Shown here: positions 2,955 to 51,567 of the stretch, piece after piece | Layout: each line of letters starts with the position of its first letter | Position numbering within the stretch: the stretch's first letter is position 1 | Source: Clostridia bacterium | GTDB lineage: Bacteria; Bacillota; Clostridia; Christensenellales; UBA1242 | Length of the DNA: 64,000 nucleotides | Direction of reading: 5' to 3' | NCBI GenBank assembly: GCA_045655005.1 | Contig: JAZOOJ010000006.1 | Location: forward strand, 70,130 to 134,129 | Notes under the pieces: model-generated | Told to the model about the DNA's origin: nothing | The model's input: the letters and a program-made list of their open reading frames with translations, nothing else | The model's database searches: none | Position numbers and translations under genes: made by a program

Positions 2955-3434
2955 ATGAAATATTTATTATGTGTGGGCGTTATTGCTGGGTTTGGTTATA
3001 TTGGGCTGTGTGTTAGAAATCATTTATCAAAAAGAGTTCAATTTTATGCAGAACTTATTGATTTTTTAAACAAATTTATTATAAATATAAATTTTTTACA
3101 AGTTAATTTTATTGACTATTTAAATGAAGAAATTGCTAAGAACAATGAACTTGCAAAAGCATTAAGACAATTTAAACAAAATTATATAGATAATATATCA
3201 TCAGAGAATATAAAACATCTTTATTTAAGTGATAATGAATTAAATATTGTGTTTGAGTGTTTGAATTCGATAGGTTCAACAGATAGTGAAAATCAAATCG
3301 CATTACTTAATGGATATAAGGTGGAGTTTGAACAATTGCTTATAGAAAGCAGTGAGAAAATGAAAAAATACTCAGGTCTTGCAGTCAAGATGTCTATCAT
3401 AGTAGGTTGTTTAATTGTTTTGATTTTTATTTAG
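2955..3434 (+). CDS. spoIIIAB: Stage III sporulation protein AB
   Basis: Position in the operon, an N- and C-terminal TM segment, and a size of about 160 aa. ATG 2955 follows a GGGGGTGA RBS; the track start 2940 is a GTG inside spoIIIAA. Confidence 0.65.
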   Translation: MKYLLCVGVIAGFGYIGLCVRNHLSKRVQFYAELIDFLNKFIININFLQVNFIDYLNEEIAKNNELAKALRQFKQNYIDNISSENIKHLYLSDNELNIVFECLNSIGSTDSENQIALLNGYKVEFEQLLIESSEKMKKYSGLAVKMSIIVGCLIVLIFI

Positions 3435-3449
3435 GAGTAAAAGAAGTGT

Positions 3450-3647
3450 ATGGGGGTTGAAATAATTTTTAAAATAGGAGCGATTGGCATATTGACTGCC
3501 GTTATAAGTCAGGTCCTTGGACAAGCTGGGAAGAGCGAGATTGCAACTTTATCAACTCTTGCAGGCGTGGTAATTGTATTAGTTATGGTAATTGATATGA
3601 TTTCAGAATTGTTTACAAGTATAAAGAGTTTATTTGGGTTGGGGTAG
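3450..3647 (+). CDS. spoIIIAC: Stage III sporulation protein AC
   Basis: 65-aa two-TM hydrophobic protein at the expected operon position. Confidence 0.8.
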   Translation: MGVEIIFKIGAIGILTAVISQVLGQAGKSEIATLSTLAGVVIVLVMVIDMISELFTSIKSLFGLG

Positions 3648-4028
3648 ATGATTTTAACAATTGTCGGCATTGGAATTCTAGGCGTTTCGGCAACTTTAAT
3701 TTTAAAAGAAATTAAGCCGTCAATGGCACTTTTTGTTTCTCTTGCAACTTGTGTAGTTATTTCATTTTTGGTTATAGCCAGATTTCAAGGGTTAGCATCG
3801 ACCATAGGTGAGTTTATGACAAAATTGTCATTAGATGATGGAATTTTAAAGACAGCATTAAAAGTTGTTGGAGTTGGATATTTAATTGAATTTGCTTCGG
3901 ATATAGCCGAGGAAAGTGGATTGCAGTCAATTTCTCACAAAATTACGCTTGCAGGTAAAATTATCATCGCTTCTATTTGTTTGCCATATTTATTCGAATT
4001 GTTTGATATGGTATTAGGTTTGGTATGA
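3648..4028 (+). CDS. spoIIIAD: Stage III sporulation protein AD
   Basis: 126-aa polytopic membrane protein that abuts the spoIIIAC stop, at the expected position. Confidence 0.8.
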   Translation: MILTIVGIGILGVSATLILKEIKPSMALFVSLATCVVISFLVIARFQGLASTIGEFMTKLSLDDGILKTALKVVGVGYLIEFASDIAEESGLQSISHKITLAGKIIIASICLPYLFELFDMVLGLV

Positions 4029-5206
4029 AAAAATTAATGACATTATTTTTGTTTCTTTTGTTTATGAGTTCAATACTTAATTTTAAAAATTTAATGCCGG
4101 TTTATGCAACAACAGAAAACGAGGAAGATTTAGAAGAACTGTTGAGTGAAAGTATAAATTTACAACTTGAATCGCTTGATTTGGAGCCAATAGAAGATAT
4201 CTATAATAAGTATGTGACTCATGAAGAAGCTTCATTTTATGACATATTGACCGACATCTTAAATGGAGAAAATGTATTTTCATTTAATTCAGTATTAAAT
4301 TTGTTGTGTGGCGGGATAGTCAATACCATAAAGTCTAATTACAAATTACTTTTAACGATTTTAGCAATAGCTTTTTTATCGGCGCTAATATCTAATTTTG
4401 CAATATCTAAAACATCATCAGACTTTTTGTCATCTATTTCATTTGTGTTCGTTGCTATTGTTGCAGGTTTGATTAGTTATAGTGTGCTAGAGCTAATAAC
4501 AGATACATCCTTAACTCTTTCAAATATAAATAAACTAACAGAGACAATATCTCCAATTTTATTAGCATTAATGGTATCGATTGGAGCAGTGTCTTCAAGC
4601 GCATTGTATCAGCCGGCAATTTCAGCGATGTCAACTATAATAATTGATATATTTACAAACTTTTTGTTTGGATTGATAGTTTTTATGCTAGTTATTACAA
4701 TATTAGGTTCGTTGGTAGACGGGTTTAATCTTGGAAGGCTTAATCAATTTTGTTCGTCGCTTTTTAAGTGGGTTATAAGTATTGTGTTTACCTTATTTAT
4801 TGGGTATTTGTCTTTACAAGGAGTCACAGCTAGCGGATATGATGGATTATCTATCAAAACTGCAAAGTATGCGATAAGAAGTTATATTCCAATAGTTGGG
4901 GGATATCTATCTGATGGTTTTGAAATCTTTCGTGGTGGGAGTATTCTTATTAAGAATAGTCTTGGATTTATTGGGGTTATAATTTTAATTTTTGTAATAC
5001 TATCTCCGTTAGTAAAACTTATTGCTCTTAATTTAACATTTAAACTTGCTAGTTCTTTTACTGAGATTGTAGGGGCAAAAAAGATATCAAATTTACTGTC
5101 GGGTGTAACAAAGATTTTTAGTTATTTAATAGCAATTATTTTTGCAGTTTTTATGATGTGTTTTATATTATTTATTTTGATTATAATGACTGCAAATGTG
5201 GTGTAA
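4025..5206 (+). CDS. spoIIIAE: Stage III sporulation protein AE
   Basis: 393 aa with a signal-like N-terminus followed by a multi-TM body. It overlaps spoIIIAD by 4 nt. Confidence 0.8.
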   Translation: MKKLMTLFLFLLFMSSILNFKNLMPVYATTENEEDLEELLSESINLQLESLDLEPIEDIYNKYVTHEEASFYDILTDILNGENVFSFNSVLNLLCGGIVNTIKSNYKLLLTILAIAFLSALISNFAISKTSSDFLSSISFVFVAIVAGLISYSVLELITDTSLTLSNINKLTETISPILLALMVSIGAVSSSALYQPAISAMSTIIIDIFTNFLFGLIVFMLVITILGSLVDGFNLGRLNQFCSSLFKWVISIVFTLFIGYLSLQGVTASGYDGLSIKTAKYAIRSYIPIVGGYLSDGFEIFRGGSILIKNSLGFIGVIILIFVILSPLVKLIALNLTFKLASSFTEIVGAKKISNLLSGVTKIFSYLIAIIFAVFMMCFILFILIIMTANVV

Positions 5207-5646: not shown

Positions 5647-6166
5647 ATTATTCAAATCGAAAATATTATCAAATAAAAAAGTCCAACTGGCGGTAGCGGT
5701 TGTTTTAAGTTTTGTCTTATTGTTAATATGTTTCAACACTAGCGAAAGTGCTTCAACTAATAGTGAAATCAATGAAGTATTGGAGAGTAACATGGCAATG
5801 TCTGAAAATTATGAAGTTGGTGTTGAAGGCCGAATAGTAAACATTGTAAATTCTATAAATGGGATAAGTGATGCAAAAGCATTTGTTTACACGAAAGGTT
5901 CAATTGAGATAATATATGCCGAAGATAAAGAAATCAAGACGTCGGGTGGGGAAAACGGGAATTCAACAGAATTAGAATCAATTGTGTTTAGTAAAGACGG
6001 GACAAAGACTGCTGCTGTAGTTATAAAGAAAAATTATCCTAAAATTGAGGGTGTATTAGTCGTTGCAAAGGGTGCAGATGACGAAAAAAAGCGTATTATG
6101 ATAATTAATGCTCTTGCAACAGTTTTAGATATAAATATTACAGATATTGAAGTTCTAGCGGGTTAA
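5633..6166 (+). CDS. spoIIIAG: Stage III sporulation protein AG
   Basis: N-terminal TM segment and the C-terminal motif EGVLVVAKGADD typical of SpoIIIAG, at the expected operon position. Confidence 0.65.
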   Translation: MSMIKLFKSKILSNKKVQLAVAVVLSFVLLLICFNTSESASTNSEINEVLESNMAMSENYEVGVEGRIVNIVNSINGISDAKAFVYTKGSIEIIYAEDKEIKTSGGENGNSTELESIVFSKDGTKTAAVVIKKNYPKIEGVLVVAKGADDEKKRIMIINALATVLDINITDIEVLAG

Positions 6167-6201
6167 TTACAAGCATAAAATTTACTATGTGAGGTGAAAA
6201 A

Positions 6202-6714
6202 ATGAAATTTGTATTTTTTAGGAAAACAAAACAATTTATTAAAAACAAAAAGAAAGCATTGATAATTTGTGGAATGGCTTTGCTTTTGGTGGTGACAGGG
6301 GTTATAAATTATAAATTAAACACATCAGTCGGTCTTGATGATACAACTCCAACAAATGCTGTAACGGCAAATTTCTTTGATGCATATAAGCAAGATAGAG
6401 ATGCATCAAGAGAATCCCAACTTGAATTATTAAATGAAATTTCCAACAATGCCTATGCTACTGAAATTGAAAGGTCTACAGCTTTGCAAAATAAAGCAGA
6501 ACTACAAAAAAAGATGGAGAAAGAATTGATTTTAGAGGGGCTTATCAAGGCTAAGGGATTTGAAGACGCCGTTGTAACAATAGGCTCTGAATATTATAAT
6601 GTAATTGTAAAGGGTGGACAATTAACGCAAGATCAAGCGACACAAATACTTGGGGTTATTACAAATGAAACAAAGACCAGTCCGTCAAATGTAAAGATTA
6701 TTCCAGTTGAATAA
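6202..6714 (+). CDS. spoIIIAH: Stage III sporulation protein AH
   Basis: Last gene of the operon. N-terminal TM segment, 170 aa, C-terminal YscJ/FliF-like region by position. Confidence 0.55.
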   Translation: MKFVFFRKTKQFIKNKKKALIICGMALLLVVTGVINYKLNTSVGLDDTTPTNAVTANFFDAYKQDRDASRESQLELLNEISNNAYATEIERSTALQNKAELQKKMEKELILEGLIKAKGFEDAVVTIGSEYYNVIVKGGQLTQDQATQILGVITNETKTSPSNVKIIPVE

Positions 6715-6727
6715 TTGTATAAAATTA

Positions 6728-6756
6728 TTGCAAAAGCGAAACACTTGTGATATAAT
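6728..6756 (+). promoter_or_regulatory. Sigma-A type promoter with extended -10
   Basis: TTGCAA, 17-nt spacer, TGaTATAAT, located 31 nt upstream of the asp23-family ATG. Confidence 0.55.
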
Positions 6757-6786
6757 GCAATTAGTCTAATTGGGTGGTATAGAATT

Positions 6787-7167
6787 ATGGCACAAAAATC
6801 AGCAAAGTTTAAAAGAAAAAAAAGTTCAGACTTCTCATATAAAAAGGAAGTAGTAGTTCAAATTATTGAACTTGCCGCAAAAGAAATTTCTGGCGTAACT
6901 TCATTAAGTTCTACATTTGGTCTTCATTTCAGAAGTTTGTTTTCAAGGAAGTTGAAAAAAGGCGTAGCTATTGCATTTACAGACAGTGGATTAGTTATTG
7001 ATGTTTATGTTGATATGTTGTTTGGACATTCTGTAAACGACGTTGCATTTAGAGTACAAGAAAACATTAAAAGAAGTGTTGAAAGTATGACAGAGTTTAA
7101 AGTGAAAAGAGTTAACGTTCATGTGTATGGAGTAGCATTTCAACAAGACGAAAGCATTTATATATAA
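6787..7167 (+). CDS. Asp23/Gls24 family envelope-stress protein (YqhY-like)
   Basis: 126 aa. Asp23-type pattern (VVQIIELAAKEISGV ... VNVHVYGV). Sits before nusB as in Bacillus. Confidence 0.7.
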   Translation: MAQKSAKFKRKKSSDFSYKKEVVVQIIELAAKEISGVTSLSSTFGLHFRSLFSRKLKKGVAIAFTDSGLVIDVYVDMLFGHSVNDVAFRVQENIKRSVESMTEFKVKRVNVHVYGVAFQQDESIYI

Positions 7168-9987: not shown

Positions 9988-11106
9988 ATGTTTAAAAGAC
10001 TAAAATTTTTTATTGTAAATTTTTTAATTGTCGCAATCGTGGGATTATTGCCGGTAATAAACACGTCAAATTTTAATGTGGTTATGAGCGGTAATATTTG
10101 CCCATCTAATATAATAGATAAAATTTTTCAGTTGGTAAAACCTGACTCAAAGATTAAAGAAACAGAAGTTATTGAAAGATTTAAGGTGCACGTTAGCGGA
10201 AGGCCTATCGGTTTTTCAATTGATGCGGATGGAGTTGTGGTTGTTTCTATGGGAGAAATTAAAACATCTTCTGGATTTATTAATTCCCCATGTGAAGTGT
10301 CTGGTATTAAACCGGGAGATATTATTAAAAGAGTGAATGGTGTGGAAATTACAAGCGGAGAAAGGCTGATCGATGTAGTAAATTCAAAGCCGGGCGAGGT
10401 ATGTAATATAGAACTAAATAGGAAAGGAGAAACGATGTATGTTGATGTCTGCCCGATTTACGATGAATTTGCACTTTCTTATAGGTTGGGTGTGTGGGTA
10501 AGAGATAATTCGGTTGGGGTTGGCACAGTTACTTACGTAACACAAGACAATTGTTTTAGTGCGTTAGGTCATCCAGTGACGGATGCAGACACTTCAACAA
10601 TTTTGCCTGTTGGCGTAGGAAGAACATTTAAATGTTCGATAGTAGGGGTAAAAAAAGGCATTAAGGGTGAACCGGGAGAACTAAAAGGTCTATTTTTAAA
10701 AACATCAAATGAAGTCGGTAGTATTCTAAGCAATACAACGACTGGAATAAGAGGACAATTTGTGTCCAGTGAAACAAGCGAAATGTTCAAAGATTTAGAA
10801 CTTACTGAGGTCGCATTGAGAAAAGAGGTAAGCGTTGGTGATGCTTCTATTTATACTACAATAGATGGCAATACACCAAAGCTTTACAATATTGAAATTA
10901 TTAAAACTAATCATATCAACAGTTATGGGAATAAGTGTATGGTCATTAGAATTACAGATAAAGAACTTTTAACTAAAACAGGTGGCATTGTTCAAGGAAT
11001 GAGTGGTAGTCCAATCTTGCAAAATGGTAAACTTATTGGATGTGTAACACACGTTTTCATTAATGACCCTAGTAAAGGGTTTGCGGATTTTATTGATTTA
11101 AAATAA
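9988..11106 (+). CDS. spoIVB: SpoIVB peptidase (S55 family)
   Basis: N-terminal TM segment, PDZ-like GIKPGDIIKRVNGVEI, and the catalytic-Ser region GIVQGMSGSPILQNGKLIGCVTHVF. Confidence 0.9.
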   Translation: MFKRLKFFIVNFLIVAIVGLLPVINTSNFNVVMSGNICPSNIIDKIFQLVKPDSKIKETEVIERFKVHVSGRPIGFSIDADGVVVVSMGEIKTSSGFINSPCEVSGIKPGDIIKRVNGVEITSGERLIDVVNSKPGEVCNIELNRKGETMYVDVCPIYDEFALSYRLGVWVRDNSVGVGTVTYVTQDNCFSALGHPVTDADTSTILPVGVGRTFKCSIVGVKKGIKGEPGELKGLFLKTSNEVGSILSNTTTGIRGQFVSSETSEMFKDLELTEVALRKEVSVGDASIYTTIDGNTPKLYNIEIIKTNHINSYGNKCMVIRITDKELLTKTGGIVQGMSGSPILQNGKLIGCVTHVFINDPSKGFADFIDLK

Positions 11107-30742: not shown

Positions 30743-30817
30743 GCGGGAGTGGCTCAGTGGTAGAGCGTTGCCTTGCCAAGGCAAATGTCGCGAGTTCGAA
30801 TCTCGTCTTCCGCTCCA
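30743..30817 (+). tRNA. tRNA-Gly (anticodon GCC), CCA encoded
   Basis: Manual cloverleaf: acceptor GCGGGAG/CTTCCGC, D-arm GCTC-AGTGGTA-GAGC, anticodon arm TTGCC-TTGCCAA-GGCAA, T-arm GCGAG-TTCGAAT-CTCGT, discriminator U, CCA. Confidence 0.95.
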
Positions 30818-48840: not shown

Positions 48841-49572
48841 ATGCAAAAGATGAGCGGACATTCAAAGTTTCATAATATTAAAAAGACAAAAGATAAAGCA
48901 GATGCAGCAAGGGCAAAGATTTTTACCAAGATTGGAAGAGAAATTGCTGTGGCTGTTAAGTTGGGTGGACCTGACCCGAATACAAATTCAAAACTTGCTG
49001 ATATTATAAGCAAGGCAAAATCTAATAATATGCCAAATGATAACATTCAAAGAAGTATTAAAAAGGCCTCTGGTGAAACCAATATGGTTGATTATACAGA
49101 TATGGTATATGAAGGCTATGGACCAGCAGGGGTTGCATTTATTGTTGAATGCTTAACAGATAATAAAAACAGAACTGCGGGCGATGTAAGACATCTTTTT
49201 GATAAGTCTGGCGGAAGTCTTGGAACAACAGGAAGCGTTTCATTTATGTTTAGCAGAAAAGGCGTGATTATAATTGAAAAACAAAATGGTCTTGAAGAAG
49301 ACAGAGTATTTGAAATTGCAATTGAAAGTGGAGCAGATGATGTTGTTACTGATGAAGATTGCTTTACAGTTTACACACCTACACAAAATTTAAACGACGT
49401 ACAAAAGGCATTCGTTGATGCAGGTATTGAAGTAGCACATGCAGAAAGCGAGATGGTTCCATCAAACTACATCGTTCCAACCGAAGACCAAATTTCTTCA
49501 ATTGAAAAACTTATTGATGGACTTGAAGAACTTGACGATGTTCAAAATGTTTATCACAACGCTGATTTTTAA
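48841..49572 (+). CDS. yebC: YebC/PmpR family transcriptional regulator
   Basis: MSGHSKFHNIKKTKDKADAARAKIFTK... is canonical. ATG 48850 is an alternative start. Confidence 0.9.
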   Translation: MQKMSGHSKFHNIKKTKDKADAARAKIFTKIGREIAVAVKLGGPDPNTNSKLADIISKAKSNNMPNDNIQRSIKKASGETNMVDYTDMVYEGYGPAGVAFIVECLTDNKNRTAGDVRHLFDKSGGSLGTTGSVSFMFSRKGVIIIEKQNGLEEDRVFEIAIESGADDVVTDEDCFTVYTPTQNLNDVQKAFVDAGIEVAHAESEMVPSNYIVPTEDQISSIEKLIDGLEELDDVQNVYHNADF

Positions 49573-49585
49573 ATATATAACATAT

Positions 49586-49617
49586 AAAACGAGTGAAAAT
49601 TTTCACTCGTTTTTTTC
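49586..49617 (+). terminator. Rho-independent terminator after yebC
   Basis: Stem AAAACGAGTGAA / TTCACTCGTTTT followed by a T-run. Confidence 0.8.
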
Positions 49618-49639
49618 TTTATTTCAATGATGGCAAAAA

Positions 49640-49778
49640 TTATACGTTTATATGTATATTAGACGAATAAATTTTTTGATTTTTTTAAAACAATTTTTGA
49701 TTTTTTTTGCTTTTTATTTGATTATTTTCTGCAAAAAGTGATAAAATATATACATCTATTATACATATAAACGTATAA
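49640..49778. repeat. Perfect 19-bp inverted repeat bracketing a 101-bp promoter-containing segment (candidate invertible switch)
   Basis: TTATACGTTTATATGTATA at 49640-49658 and its exact reverse complement TATACATATAAACGTATAA at 49760-49778. Confidence 0.8.
49718..49747 (+). promoter_or_regulatory. Sigma-A-like promoter inside the IR-bounded segment
   Basis: TTGATT, 18-nt spacer, TGaTAAAAT. Two further TTTGATT motifs lie exactly 21 and 42 bp upstream (49697, 49676) within T-tracts. Confidence 0.45.
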
Positions 49779-49798
49779 AATTTTCAAAGGAGAAAATA

Positions 49799-51457
49799 AT
49801 GAGTAAAAATTGTAAAAACGCAAAAGAAAACAATAAAAAGATTTCATTTAAACTATTAAGCAAAAAGGCACTTGCTGTTGCGATGAGTGTCGCCATTATT
49901 GGTTCGTCAGCAAGCCTTTTAACTGCTTGTGGTAGTGATGGAACAGATGGTGCGAATGGTAAAAGTGCATATGAACTTGCAGTTGAAAACGGTTATACAG
50001 GCACACTTGAAGAATGGTTAAATTCACTAGTTGGAGTAAAAGGCGAAAAGGGTGATGCTGGTGCAGTTGGCCCACAAGGAGCCACCGGAGAAACCGGTAA
50101 GGCAGGGGTGGATGTTGGAACGCTAGACAATATGAATTTTATGCATATTTCATTTGATGATGTTGAAAAATGTTTTACAAATCTTAAAAATAATTCATAC
50201 GACAGTCTTTATGACGAACCTTTCTTTGCTTGGCTAAAATCTTTACACGATACCTATGGAGCAAAATTTAGTTTATATGCTTACAACAACGCACTAACAA
50301 GCGTTCCAAACACTTATGCTGATGAATTTTTGTCGGCCAAAGATTGGTTGAAAATAGGATTACACGCAGATAGTTCAAGTTCTAACTTTGCTAGTTCCAC
50401 TTATGAACAAGGGAAAACCGCTTGGAATACATTTGTAAATAATGTTGTTAGAATTACTGGTTCATATTTAAGTGTTGATAGAATGCCAAGGCTTCATACT
50501 TTTGCAGGTAGCGAAGAGGCCCTAAAAGGTATGAGAGATGCTAGCTACGGAGCAATAGGTTTCTTGTCTGCTGATGATGCTAGGAATTCATACTACTTTG
50601 ACCAAGATACAACCGATTATCTTTATTATAACGATCATATTACTGACCACGAGAACGGACTACTATTTGTAGCAACTGATTTAAGAGCAGATTGGTTTGA
50701 AGGCACAAGTGCAAGTAATGAATATAGAGAGCCAACAAAAACATCAGTCTATGAAGAACTTGTAGAAAGATATACAAATGTTGAATATGCAAATTCAATA
50801 AGTTCATATATTTTCTTTGGACACGAATGGTTGATTTATAACGGAACTACACTTGATAGTGGCAAACAATATTTTGAAGATGTTTGTAAATTTGCACAAG
50901 ACTATGATATAGCTTTTGATTATTCTCAAAATAAAGCATTTAATCCAACATCAAACGACCTTTACCCAGAAGGAACAGCAACTGGGGGAGGAGATCAAGG
51001 ACAAGATCCTGCAGTAACAACCGTAATGTATCATAATACCGAAATGGAAGTTGTTGATAGCATTAGCGAAATGACATTTGATGGCAACTATGCACCACCA
51101 GGATCTGCGTCGGATGACTTTAAGCCAGCGACAGTTGACGGTAGAGCAACTTGTATTACATCAGTCCTTGCGGTTGATGGTGGGGAAACAATAGATTTTG
51201 TTTCTAATCTAGAAGAAGTATTTGGTTCAACAAGCTTATCTTTTGCAGTATTAGAATTTTCTTCTGCACCATTATCTCCAACAACTTTAAGTGCTTCATC
51301 AAATAATGCAGCATCAGCTAAAGCTTGGCTAACCGAAGCACATAGTTTACAAACTAATACAAGGTATGTAATTATTGCATTCAAAAATGGCGATGGCAGT
51401 GTTGACTTTAGTGCTGAACAACTAGAAAAATTGTCTCAATGTTTAATAATATCGTAA
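49799..51457 (+). CDS. Surface lipoprotein with a short collagen-like (G-X-Y)8 repeat and a large uncharacterised C-terminal region
   Basis: Lipobox LLTAC. GKSAYELAVENGYTGTLEEWLNSL is followed by GVKGEKGDAGAVGPQGATGETGKAG. The remainder (HISFDD...) is not recognised. Confidence 0.65.
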   Translation: MSKNCKNAKENNKKISFKLLSKKALAVAMSVAIIGSSASLLTACGSDGTDGANGKSAYELAVENGYTGTLEEWLNSLVGVKGEKGDAGAVGPQGATGETGKAGVDVGTLDNMNFMHISFDDVEKCFTNLKNNSYDSLYDEPFFAWLKSLHDTYGAKFSLYAYNNALTSVPNTYADEFLSAKDWLKIGLHADSSSSNFASSTYEQGKTAWNTFVNNVVRITGSYLSVDRMPRLHTFAGSEEALKGMRDASYGAIGFLSADDARNSYYFDQDTTDYLYYNDHITDHENGLLFVATDLRADWFEGTSASNEYREPTKTSVYEELVERYTNVEYANSISSYIFFGHEWLIYNGTTLDSGKQYFEDVCKFAQDYDIAFDYSQNKAFNPTSNDLYPEGTATGGGDQGQDPAVTTVMYHNTEMEVVDSISEMTFDGNYAPPGSASDDFKPATVDGRATCITSVLAVDGGETIDFVSNLEEVFGSTSLSFAVLEFSSAPLSPTTLSASSNNAASAKAWLTEAHSLQTNTRYVIIAFKNGDGSVDFSAEQLEKLSQCLIIS

Positions 51458-51470
51458 TATTAATAATTAG

Positions 51471-51500
51471 AAGGGTTGGTACTATGTCCAACCCTTTTTT
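51471..51500 (+). terminator. Rho-independent terminator
   Basis: Stem AAGGGTTGG / CCAACCCTT followed by a T-run. Confidence 0.8.
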
Positions 51501-51567
51501 GTAATTACTTTTTTCTAATTGACATTGTGAACTATAATTGCTAAAATTAAAACATAAGGAGTATATA

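Follow-up and report, generated by a model that had tools for sequence, protein, structure and literature searches.

A putative invertible promoter with composite 12-7-12 sites upstream of a surface lipoprotein gene in uncultured Clostridia

Introduction

Invertible promoters are a major means of surface variation in gut bacteria, and large surveys have identified very many invertons, Firmicutes included (PMC11602134, PMC5903667). Most of the catalogued invertons stem from surveys based on read mapping, and usually neither the enzyme nor the precise sequence that it recombines is known. In the stretch of DNA analyzed here (64,000 nucleotides, hereafter called the window), a perfect inverted repeat surrounds the predicted promoter of a gene for a putative surface lipoprotein. 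Could this repeat be part of a promoter switch, which enzyme would act on it, and in which state was it assembled?

Results

The inverted repeat and its surroundings

The sequence TTATACGTTTATATGTATA is located at positions 49640-49658 and recurs as a perfect reverse complement at 49760-49778, with 101 bp in between. This 19-bp pair is the longest perfect inverted repeat (spacer up to 300 bp) in the 64-kb window, and the runners-up, of 15 and 14 bp, are both terminator hairpins. When up to three mismatches were allowed, the arm was found at two places only in the window, while shuffled sequences gave an expectation of 0.06. The GC content of the window is 32% and that of the intergenic region holding the repeat is 18%. 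A chance origin of the repeat, and of the sites described below, is excluded. An Rfam search of this region gave no match.

The gene order is infC-rpmI-rplT, a SpoU methylase gene and yebC, followed by a terminator, the repeat, an ORF of 552 aa and ruvC-ruvA-ruvB. A preliminary description of this DNA had reported the perfect repeat around 101 bp, placed its left arm behind the yebC terminator and its right arm 20 nt before the start codon, and recognized between the arms the only good promoter of the gene. All of this was confirmed: the hairpin at 49586-49613 precedes 49640, the ATG lies at 49799, and TTGATT-18-TGaTAAAAT is present inside the segment on the plus strand, directed toward the gene, as the sole plus-strand call between the yebC terminator and the ATG, promoters here being consensus matches in DNA of 18% GC. 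Between the end of the terminator (49613) and the left site (49640) no promoter-like site was found on the plus strand, and the 20 nt from the right site to the start codon hold the ribosome binding site (RBS) and leave no space for a promoter. The features of the locus are as follows.

49586-49613, flagged on both strands: yebC terminator hairpin
49640-49670, plus strand: left composite site (12-7-12), rank 2 of 63,970 with 17.0 bits in a model without window sequence
49640-49651, 49652-49658 and 49659-49670: outer half TTATACGTTTAT, centre ATGTATA and inner half TTAGACGAATAA of the left site
49671-49747, plus strand: interior between the sites, 77 bp (101 bp with the inner half-sites), candidate flipping DNA
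49718-49747, plus strand: predicted promoter TTGATT-18-TGaTAAAAT with extended -10, facing the gene (ON)
49748-49778, plus strand: right composite site (12-7-12), rank 1 of 63,970 with 20.0 bits
49748-49759, 49760-49766 and 49767-49778: inner half ATATACATCTAT, centre TATACAT and outer half ATAAACGTATAA of the right site
49786-49792, plus strand: RBS AAAGGAG
49799-51457, plus strand: lipoprotein gene, 552 aa, with lipobox LLTAC, short G-X-Y tracts, a predicted central CE4/NodB-like fold and a predicted C-terminal beta domain
51473-51501, plus strand: terminator of the lipoprotein gene, GGGTTGG...CCAACCC followed by a T-run, read from the sequence
49578-51537, plus strand: lineage-specific cassette of terminator, putative switch, gene and terminator

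The arms belong to a family of composite sites

The nearest homologs of the window lipoprotein (65-82% identity) are encoded in MAGs of uncultured Clostridia, including some from goat and sheep colon, in unrelated genomic contexts. The regions upstream of these homologs fall into two classes, with either G9-G12 tracts or paired long inverted repeats. To the second class belong the loci L005 and L030, where the long inverted-repeat pair surrounds ∼106-118 bp, and L027, a fragment at a contig end whose contig begins within such a repeat. Each arm of this class is a near-palindrome of the form 12-7-12, as in the right site of L030, ACATACATCTAA-TAAGAAA-TTAGATGTATGT. Two such sites each could be identified at L005, L030 and at two further loci, L052 and L053, with centres 137-149 bp apart compared to 108 bp in the window. 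At all four loci the pair is immediately followed by an RBS and a lipoprotein gene with a window-type leader; across the related loci the distance from the right site to the ATG is 17-21 nt and the outer flank is constant.

Each 19-bp arm of the window corresponds to the outer half and the 7-bp centre of such a 31-bp composite site. The repeats that the preliminary description had taken as switch elements are thus real, but the functional unit appears to be the 31-bp site, as the arms extend inward as degenerate half-sites. The window half-sites have diverged from the consensus, the outer half scoring just 6.3 bits, while outer half and centre are identical between the two sites at 19/19 positions. 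The centres ATGTATA (left) and TATACAT (right) are reverse complements of each other, and the same relation between left and right centres was found at 5/5 loci (window, L005, L030, L052 and L053). All other fetched loci were devoid of a 12-7-12 pair with reverse-complemented centres.

Tyrosine-recombinase core sites such as loxP, FRT, dif and those of lambda consist of two inverted binding elements around an asymmetric crossover region of 6-8 bp, and two of them in opposite orientation lead to inversion of the DNA in between. Judged by their sequence, the window arms have the layout of such core sites arranged for inversion.

A weight matrix was built from 17 half-sites of L005, L027, L030, L052 and L053 only, the window being left out against circularity. 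When the window was scanned for 12-7-12 composites, its two sites ranked first and second among 63,970 positions, with 20.0 and 17.0 bits, and the third position scored 6.2. Among 200 sequences of 64 kb simulated with a first-order Markov model, the best score was 9.5 on average and 18.8 at most, so that 0/200 reached 20.0, and none of the simulations yielded a pair with reverse-complemented centres. With an earlier model from nine half-sites, the window sites had been at ranks 1 and 4.

The terminal inverted repeats bound a short non-coding segment, and one might ask whether a MITE or insertion-sequence remnant, a 139-bp element, simply landed upstream of the gene. The outermost bases T-TA...TA-A make a TA target duplication formally possible, and the surrounding cassette is itself an indel (see below). 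However, the window holds no further copy of the arm at up to three mismatches, and no paired copy was found in metagenome contigs, where a scan for both window arms with free interior gave 0 matches. Scans of viral contigs with the arm and with the L030/L052 site core gave no pair and only three single chance matches. Moreover, elements that share the half-site motif but differ in their arms precede the ATG of related genes by 17-21 nt at unrelated genomic positions, three of them adjoin a recombinase gene, and the window segment carries the only promoter of its gene. An origin as such an element is considered extremely improbable. A metagenome scan with the consensus ACATACATCTAA-N7-TTARATGT resulted in 21 loci, all in unrelated coding sequences and each with a single site that had neither a partner nor a recombinase or lipoprotein gene beside it.

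Two further homologs were observed outside this site family. The homolog at L026 (326-616, 71% identity) has a divergent gene for a 67-aa XRE-type HTH protein upstream, and neither 12-7-12 sites nor any inverted-repeat pair could be found upstream of it; L026 may be a conventionally regulated member of the family. In L018, a Christensenella MAG, a homolog of the lipoprotein domain (5929-7017) is preceded at ∼1.9 kb by a recombinase homolog of 35% identity (3083-4024). This lipoprotein-domain homolog carries a C13 tract within its coding part, close to the 5' end, and the locus yielded no 12-7-12 sites.

The sites are linked to genes for Xer-like recombinases

At L030, L052 and L053 a gene for a tyrosine recombinase (PF00589) ends at or inside the left site, and at L030 the 3' end of the gene overlaps this site. 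It was via relatives of the L030 recombinase, at 76% and 69% identity, that L052 and L053 were reached. The order at both is recombinase gene, left site, 107-118 bp, right site, RBS and the gene for a surface protein of 1046 or 1109 aa. The linked recombinases are Xer-like, scoring 56-91 bits on XerC/XerD models with cut-offs of 220-335 bits, and match the FimB/FimE-type model of NCBIfam weakly (E 7e-4, 19 bits compared to a cut-off of 222). A housekeeping XerC/XerD-dif system was rejected, as the scores stay below these cut-offs and the sites are inverted pairs upstream of surface-protein genes.

In the window itself, an HMM of 110 members of the recombinase family gave no match among the 321 six-frame ORFs at E≤10, while its positive controls reached 265-451 bits. 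With tblastn of the L030 recombinase against the window the best E value was 8.5. Pfam assigned the ten window ORFs of recombinase size to sporulation or housekeeping genes or gave no match, and no recombinase was among them. A Hin serine-invertase probe, for which the fetched loci offered no positive control, had no match in the window either. That the window contains no recombinase gene, as noted in the preliminary description, therefore holds for the tyrosine-recombinase family in all six frames, and the enzyme would have to act in trans from elsewhere in the genome. The sites of L005 likewise have no adjacent recombinase gene and form a second orphan switch.

The absence of a recombinase gene from the 64 kb also fits a switch that is a relic or locked. 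Its sites would derive from a working inverton brought in with the cassette, but a cognate recombinase would be missing from this genome or the diverged half-sites would be left unbound, and the promoter would be fixed in ON for constitutive expression. The cassette, an indel relative to a sister lineage, carries no recombinase of its own, and the window sites score lower than those at the recombinase-linked loci (17-20 vs. 19-36 bits). However, decay would not keep outer half and centre identical at 19/19 positions, only 64 kb of the genome were viewed, and recombinases acting in trans are documented, RecV not being encoded near cwpV (PMC2784873, PMC5903667), with the orphan sites of L005 as a further case. 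A locked state is considered unlikely.

Most of the recombinase homologs P0123-P0134 are found on very short contigs of 1.3-3.8 kb, barely longer than the gene. This could reflect assembly breaks at adjacent repeats or mixed orientations, and equally low coverage.

The promoter cassette lies at opposite ends of the segment in different loci

With its -10 element reaching to 49747, the window promoter directly adjoins the gene-proximal site, whose inner half starts at 49748 (gap 0), and it reads into the gene. Transcription is predicted to start at about 49754, within this inner half-site. At L053 the corresponding TTGTAT-18-TGaTAAAAT adjoins the inner half of the left site on the minus strand and is directed outward; its -35 matches at only 3/6 positions, and it went uncalled by the promoter tool and was found by own scoring that counts the extended -10. 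At L052, TTGTAA-18-TGtTAGAAT adjoins the inner-left half-site and is also directed outward, and it is the only promoter-like site called by the tool in that region. The 30 nt before the inner-right half-site of the window match the gene-distal end of L053, read outward, at 19/30 positions, and none of the 866 30-mers taken from either strand of the four interiors matches better. L030 has a weak equivalent, TTGCAT-17-TGtTAACCT (gap 2), plus a competing plus-strand site, and its orientation is ambiguous. L005 shows a 17/30 match at the proximal end, and its interior aligns forward with that of the window via a T-rich block (z 4.65); it is more probably co-oriented with the window. This forward alignment speaks against all four relatives mirroring the window. 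Alignment of the interiors as a general way to read orientation was rejected, because they are too diverged and only those of L052 and L053 align with each other.

The promoter cassette thus faces the gene in the window and probably at L005, and is directed away from it at L053 and L052 and perhaps also at L030. Since it faces the gene at some loci and points away at others, inversion between the sites is the simplest explanation.

These results also bear on a two-site operator, named in the preliminary description as the contrary reading, in which a dimeric repressor on two sites with centres 108 bp apart would loop the promoter and no DNA would be rearranged. Each site is indeed partly palindromic, the sites bracket the promoter, and L026 has the gene for an XRE-type HTH protein divergently upstream. 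However, L026 is exactly the locus that has neither 12-7-12 sites nor an inverted-repeat pair, and at three loci the site family is linked to a tyrosine recombinase, not to a regulator. The asymmetric 7-bp centres are always reverse-complemented, which matters for recombination but not for the binding of a repressor, and the end of the segment that carries the promoter cassette differs between loci. The operator reading is disfavoured and regarded as highly improbable.

For promoter inversion, transcripts of the OFF state would leave the segment leftward. Just outside the left site an intrinsic terminator on the minus strand was identified at L030, L052 and L053, and in the window the yebC terminator is found there; this position would be suited to stop such transcripts. 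An invertible terminator in the 5' UTR, as in cwpV, was rejected for the window, where the promoter lies inside the segment and the ON-state 5' UTR folds no better than shuffled sequences (z -1.2 and -0.6), so that a role for RNA structure was rejected as well.

The right sites at L030 (1450-1482) and L052 (5083-5113) were observed to be near-perfect palindromes followed by a T-run and resemble terminators; as RNA the L030 site folds strongly (-17.7 kcal/mol, z -4.5) compared to the weak fold of the window right site (z -1.2). Such a stem could keep transcription that runs on from the recombinase gene out of the surface-protein gene, and ON transcripts starting inside the stem could escape. 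In the window, a minus-strand site TTGAAA-18-TATAAT (49758-49787, 11/12 matches) overlaps the right site and points leftward into the segment; inversion would slightly change its -10 to TATATT. It may have arisen by chance in TA-rich DNA or be a divergent or antisense promoter.

The lipoprotein and its cassette

The preliminary description had called the product of the gene a collagen-like surface lipoprotein. The lipobox LLTAC and two short G-X-Y runs were indeed found in the 552-aa protein, but its match to the Pfam collagen model is below threshold (18.1 bits compared to a cut-off of 27.2). Pfam gave no function, and a sequence search of the PDB identified no relative. The AlphaFold model has a mean pLDDT of 73, with most of the core (residues 112-390) above 80, and this core matches the fold of CE4/NodB polysaccharide deacetylases (E 8e-6 to 1e-3, 8-12% identity). 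Residues 405-552 are predicted to form a beta-rich domain. The motif SFDD (residues 118-121) is invariant and resembles motif 1 of CE4 enzymes, "TFDD". The predicted fold gives only a hint of a role in modifying or binding surface carbohydrates.

The leader shared by the related genes starts with a lysine-rich part, followed by a hydrophobic segment, the lipobox L-x-G-C and G-X-Y triplets. In the L052 (5131-8271) and L053 (5153-8482) genes, a leader like that at 49799-49940 of the window precedes bodies with a metallophosphatase and Flg_new or Big_2, compared to the CE4-like body in the window. Comparison of these genes suggests that the putative switch and the leader travel together as a module.

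In the nearest relatives by YebC (92-93% identity), the cassette is missing and yebC is directly followed by ruvC. When aligned with the sister lineage, which has ∼81-83% nucleotide identity, 1.96 kb of the window (49578-51537) replace 70 nt (L054:2814-2883), and the indel has no obvious flanking repeats. As 1.96 kb stand against 70 nt between yebC and ruvC, switch and gene thus appear to behave as a cassette. Exact-protein look-ups with the window lipoprotein and YebC gave no match, no second assembly of the switch locus was found, and at no locus were both orientations seen. The yebC ORF as listed (48841-49572) encodes 243 aa beginning with MQKMSGHS, while nearly all homologs have 240 aa; its start is probably the second ATG at 48850, which gives 240 aa. 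The listed start probably explains why the look-up with YebC gave no match.

Elsewhere the window encodes SpoIIIAE and SpoIVB (4025-5206 and 9988-11106), and the organism therefore probably forms spores. The only tRNA gene (30743-30814) is followed by an ORF of 361 aa that has no Pfam match and is not an integrase.

Poly-G tracts in the same lipoprotein family

In the closest homologs of the lipoprotein gene, G9-G12 tracts were found 10-60 nt before the start codon, at the following positions.

L001: 2920-2945
L002: 2918-2945
L004: 1-25
L006: 5934-5943
L007: 5189-5198
L008: 5346-5354

A TTGACA hexamer precedes the tract at L001 and L002. In two assemblies that are identical in all other respects, the tract is G11 in one and G12 plus T in the other. 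These tracts suggest that the lipoprotein family also undergoes slipped-strand phase variation, with an assembly error in the homopolymer as a further possible source of the difference. For the window, slipped-strand switching was rejected, as there is no G/C run of at least 7 and no A/T run of at least 11. By its sequences, the family appears prone to phase variation. The contigs L003 and L004 were seen to break at or near the tract.

Discussion

Combining these results, it is proposed that the window contains an inverton, an invertible promoter operated by an Xer-like tyrosine recombinase and currently ON, and we consider this reading probable. The candidate switch put forward in the preliminary description is supported by a site family linked to recombinases, by the reverse-complemented centres, and by the promoter cassette, which changes ends of the segment between loci.

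In the proposed mechanism, the two inverted 31-bp core sites (49640-49670 and 49748-49778) would each offer 12-bp half-sites for binding of the recombinase around the 7-bp crossover centre. Strand exchange in the identical centres ATGTATA/TATACAT would flip the 101 bp in between, which carry the sole predicted promoter of the downstream lipoprotein gene. In the ON state, as assembled, the promoter would adjoin the gene-proximal site and read into the gene. Inversion (OFF) would bring it next to the gene-distal site, directed at the yebC terminator, and deprive the gene of its promoter. The recombinase would act in trans and be encoded elsewhere in the genome. The sequences show how the sites are built, that they belong to a family linked to recombinases, where the promoter lies, and that related loci have the cassette in opposite states; from this we infer flipping at the window locus, activity of the promoter, the position of the crossover and the presence of the recombinase in the genome.

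Comparison alone thus defines the target site (31 bp), points to a candidate family of recombinases, predicts where the crossover would occur and distinguishes ON and OFF states. The host belongs to an uncultured, probably spore-forming lineage of Clostridia from animal guts, and the compact system could be tested in E. coli. One family of surface lipoproteins would be switched by DNA inversion or by poly-G slippage at different loci, and of two sister lineages one has the cassette of switch plus gene between yebC and ruvC and the other lacks it; both observations are relevant to the spread of phase-variable genes.

More tentatively, these loci, with the window element as one node, may represent an undescribed portable system of phase variation in uncultured gut Clostridia. 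A conserved module of switch plus lipoprotein leader would be fused to varied bodies of surface proteins and move as a cassette from one chromosomal site to another. A dedicated Xer-like recombinase would act on the 12-7-12 sites, in cis as well as in trans where the switch is an orphan; at other loci poly-G slippage would take its place. This is a possibility that we put forward with some doubt. If true, two independent stochastic ON/OFF mechanisms would have replaced each other during the evolution of one protein family. A literature search of incomplete coverage found no description of the 12-7-12 site family, its recombinase clade or inversion-controlled collagen-like lipoproteins in such Clostridia.

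The mechanism of promoter inversion itself is already known, and functionally the proposed switch is a classic promoter inverton. The closest parallel is the mpl (P35) family of Mycoplasma penetrans: dispersed genes for surface lipoproteins are each proposed to be switched ON and OFF, independently of one another, by a short invertible promoter of their own beside the gene, and Xer-like tyrosine recombinase genes near some mpl genes are suggested as mediators (PMC2268961, citing Horino et al. 2003). Lipoprotein genes with individual invertible promoters and Xer-like recombinases would be common to both. However, M. penetrans belongs to a different phylum-level lineage, the proteins and site sequences are unrelated, and here 31-bp 12-7-12 sites are found and many of the paralogs have poly-G tracts.

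The fimS switch of E. coli spans 314 bp, has repeats of 9 bp and depends on IHF and Lrp. Here, in contrast, the segment has ∼100-140 bp and the sites have 31 bp, and in the window no recombinase gene is adjacent. The fimS switch, on which FimB/FimE act, resembles the present loci in that a short invertible segment with the promoter in it precedes a gene for a surface structure, in the tyrosine recombinases encoded beside the switch, as at L030, L052 and L053, and in an OFF state that reads toward the recombinase side (PMC2784873).

In Clostridioides difficile, which is also of the class Clostridia, short intergenic invertible segments lie upstream of surface-protein genes as well, and a distant tyrosine recombinase, RecV, serves several switches including cwpV and flgB (PMC2784873, PMC5903667). 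The preliminary description had named both fimS and the cwpV switch as models. The internal promoter of fimS agrees with this, but cwpV differs: its 21-bp imperfect repeats surround 195 bp, the promoter is outside the invertible segment and the OFF transcript forms a terminator (PMC2784873). In the window, by comparison, the promoter is inside the segment.

Mpi of Bacteroides fragilis is a serine recombinase. In this species promoter inversion controls surface molecules, with tyrosine recombinases of the Tsr family acting locally on invertons for outer surface proteins and Mpi acting globally in trans on polysaccharide promoters (PMC2268961, PMC5903667, PMC11602134). B. fragilis belongs to a different phylum and has different repeat motifs; it shares with the loci described here that a tyrosine recombinase is encoded next to some of the switches, while the rest depend on an enzyme acting in trans.
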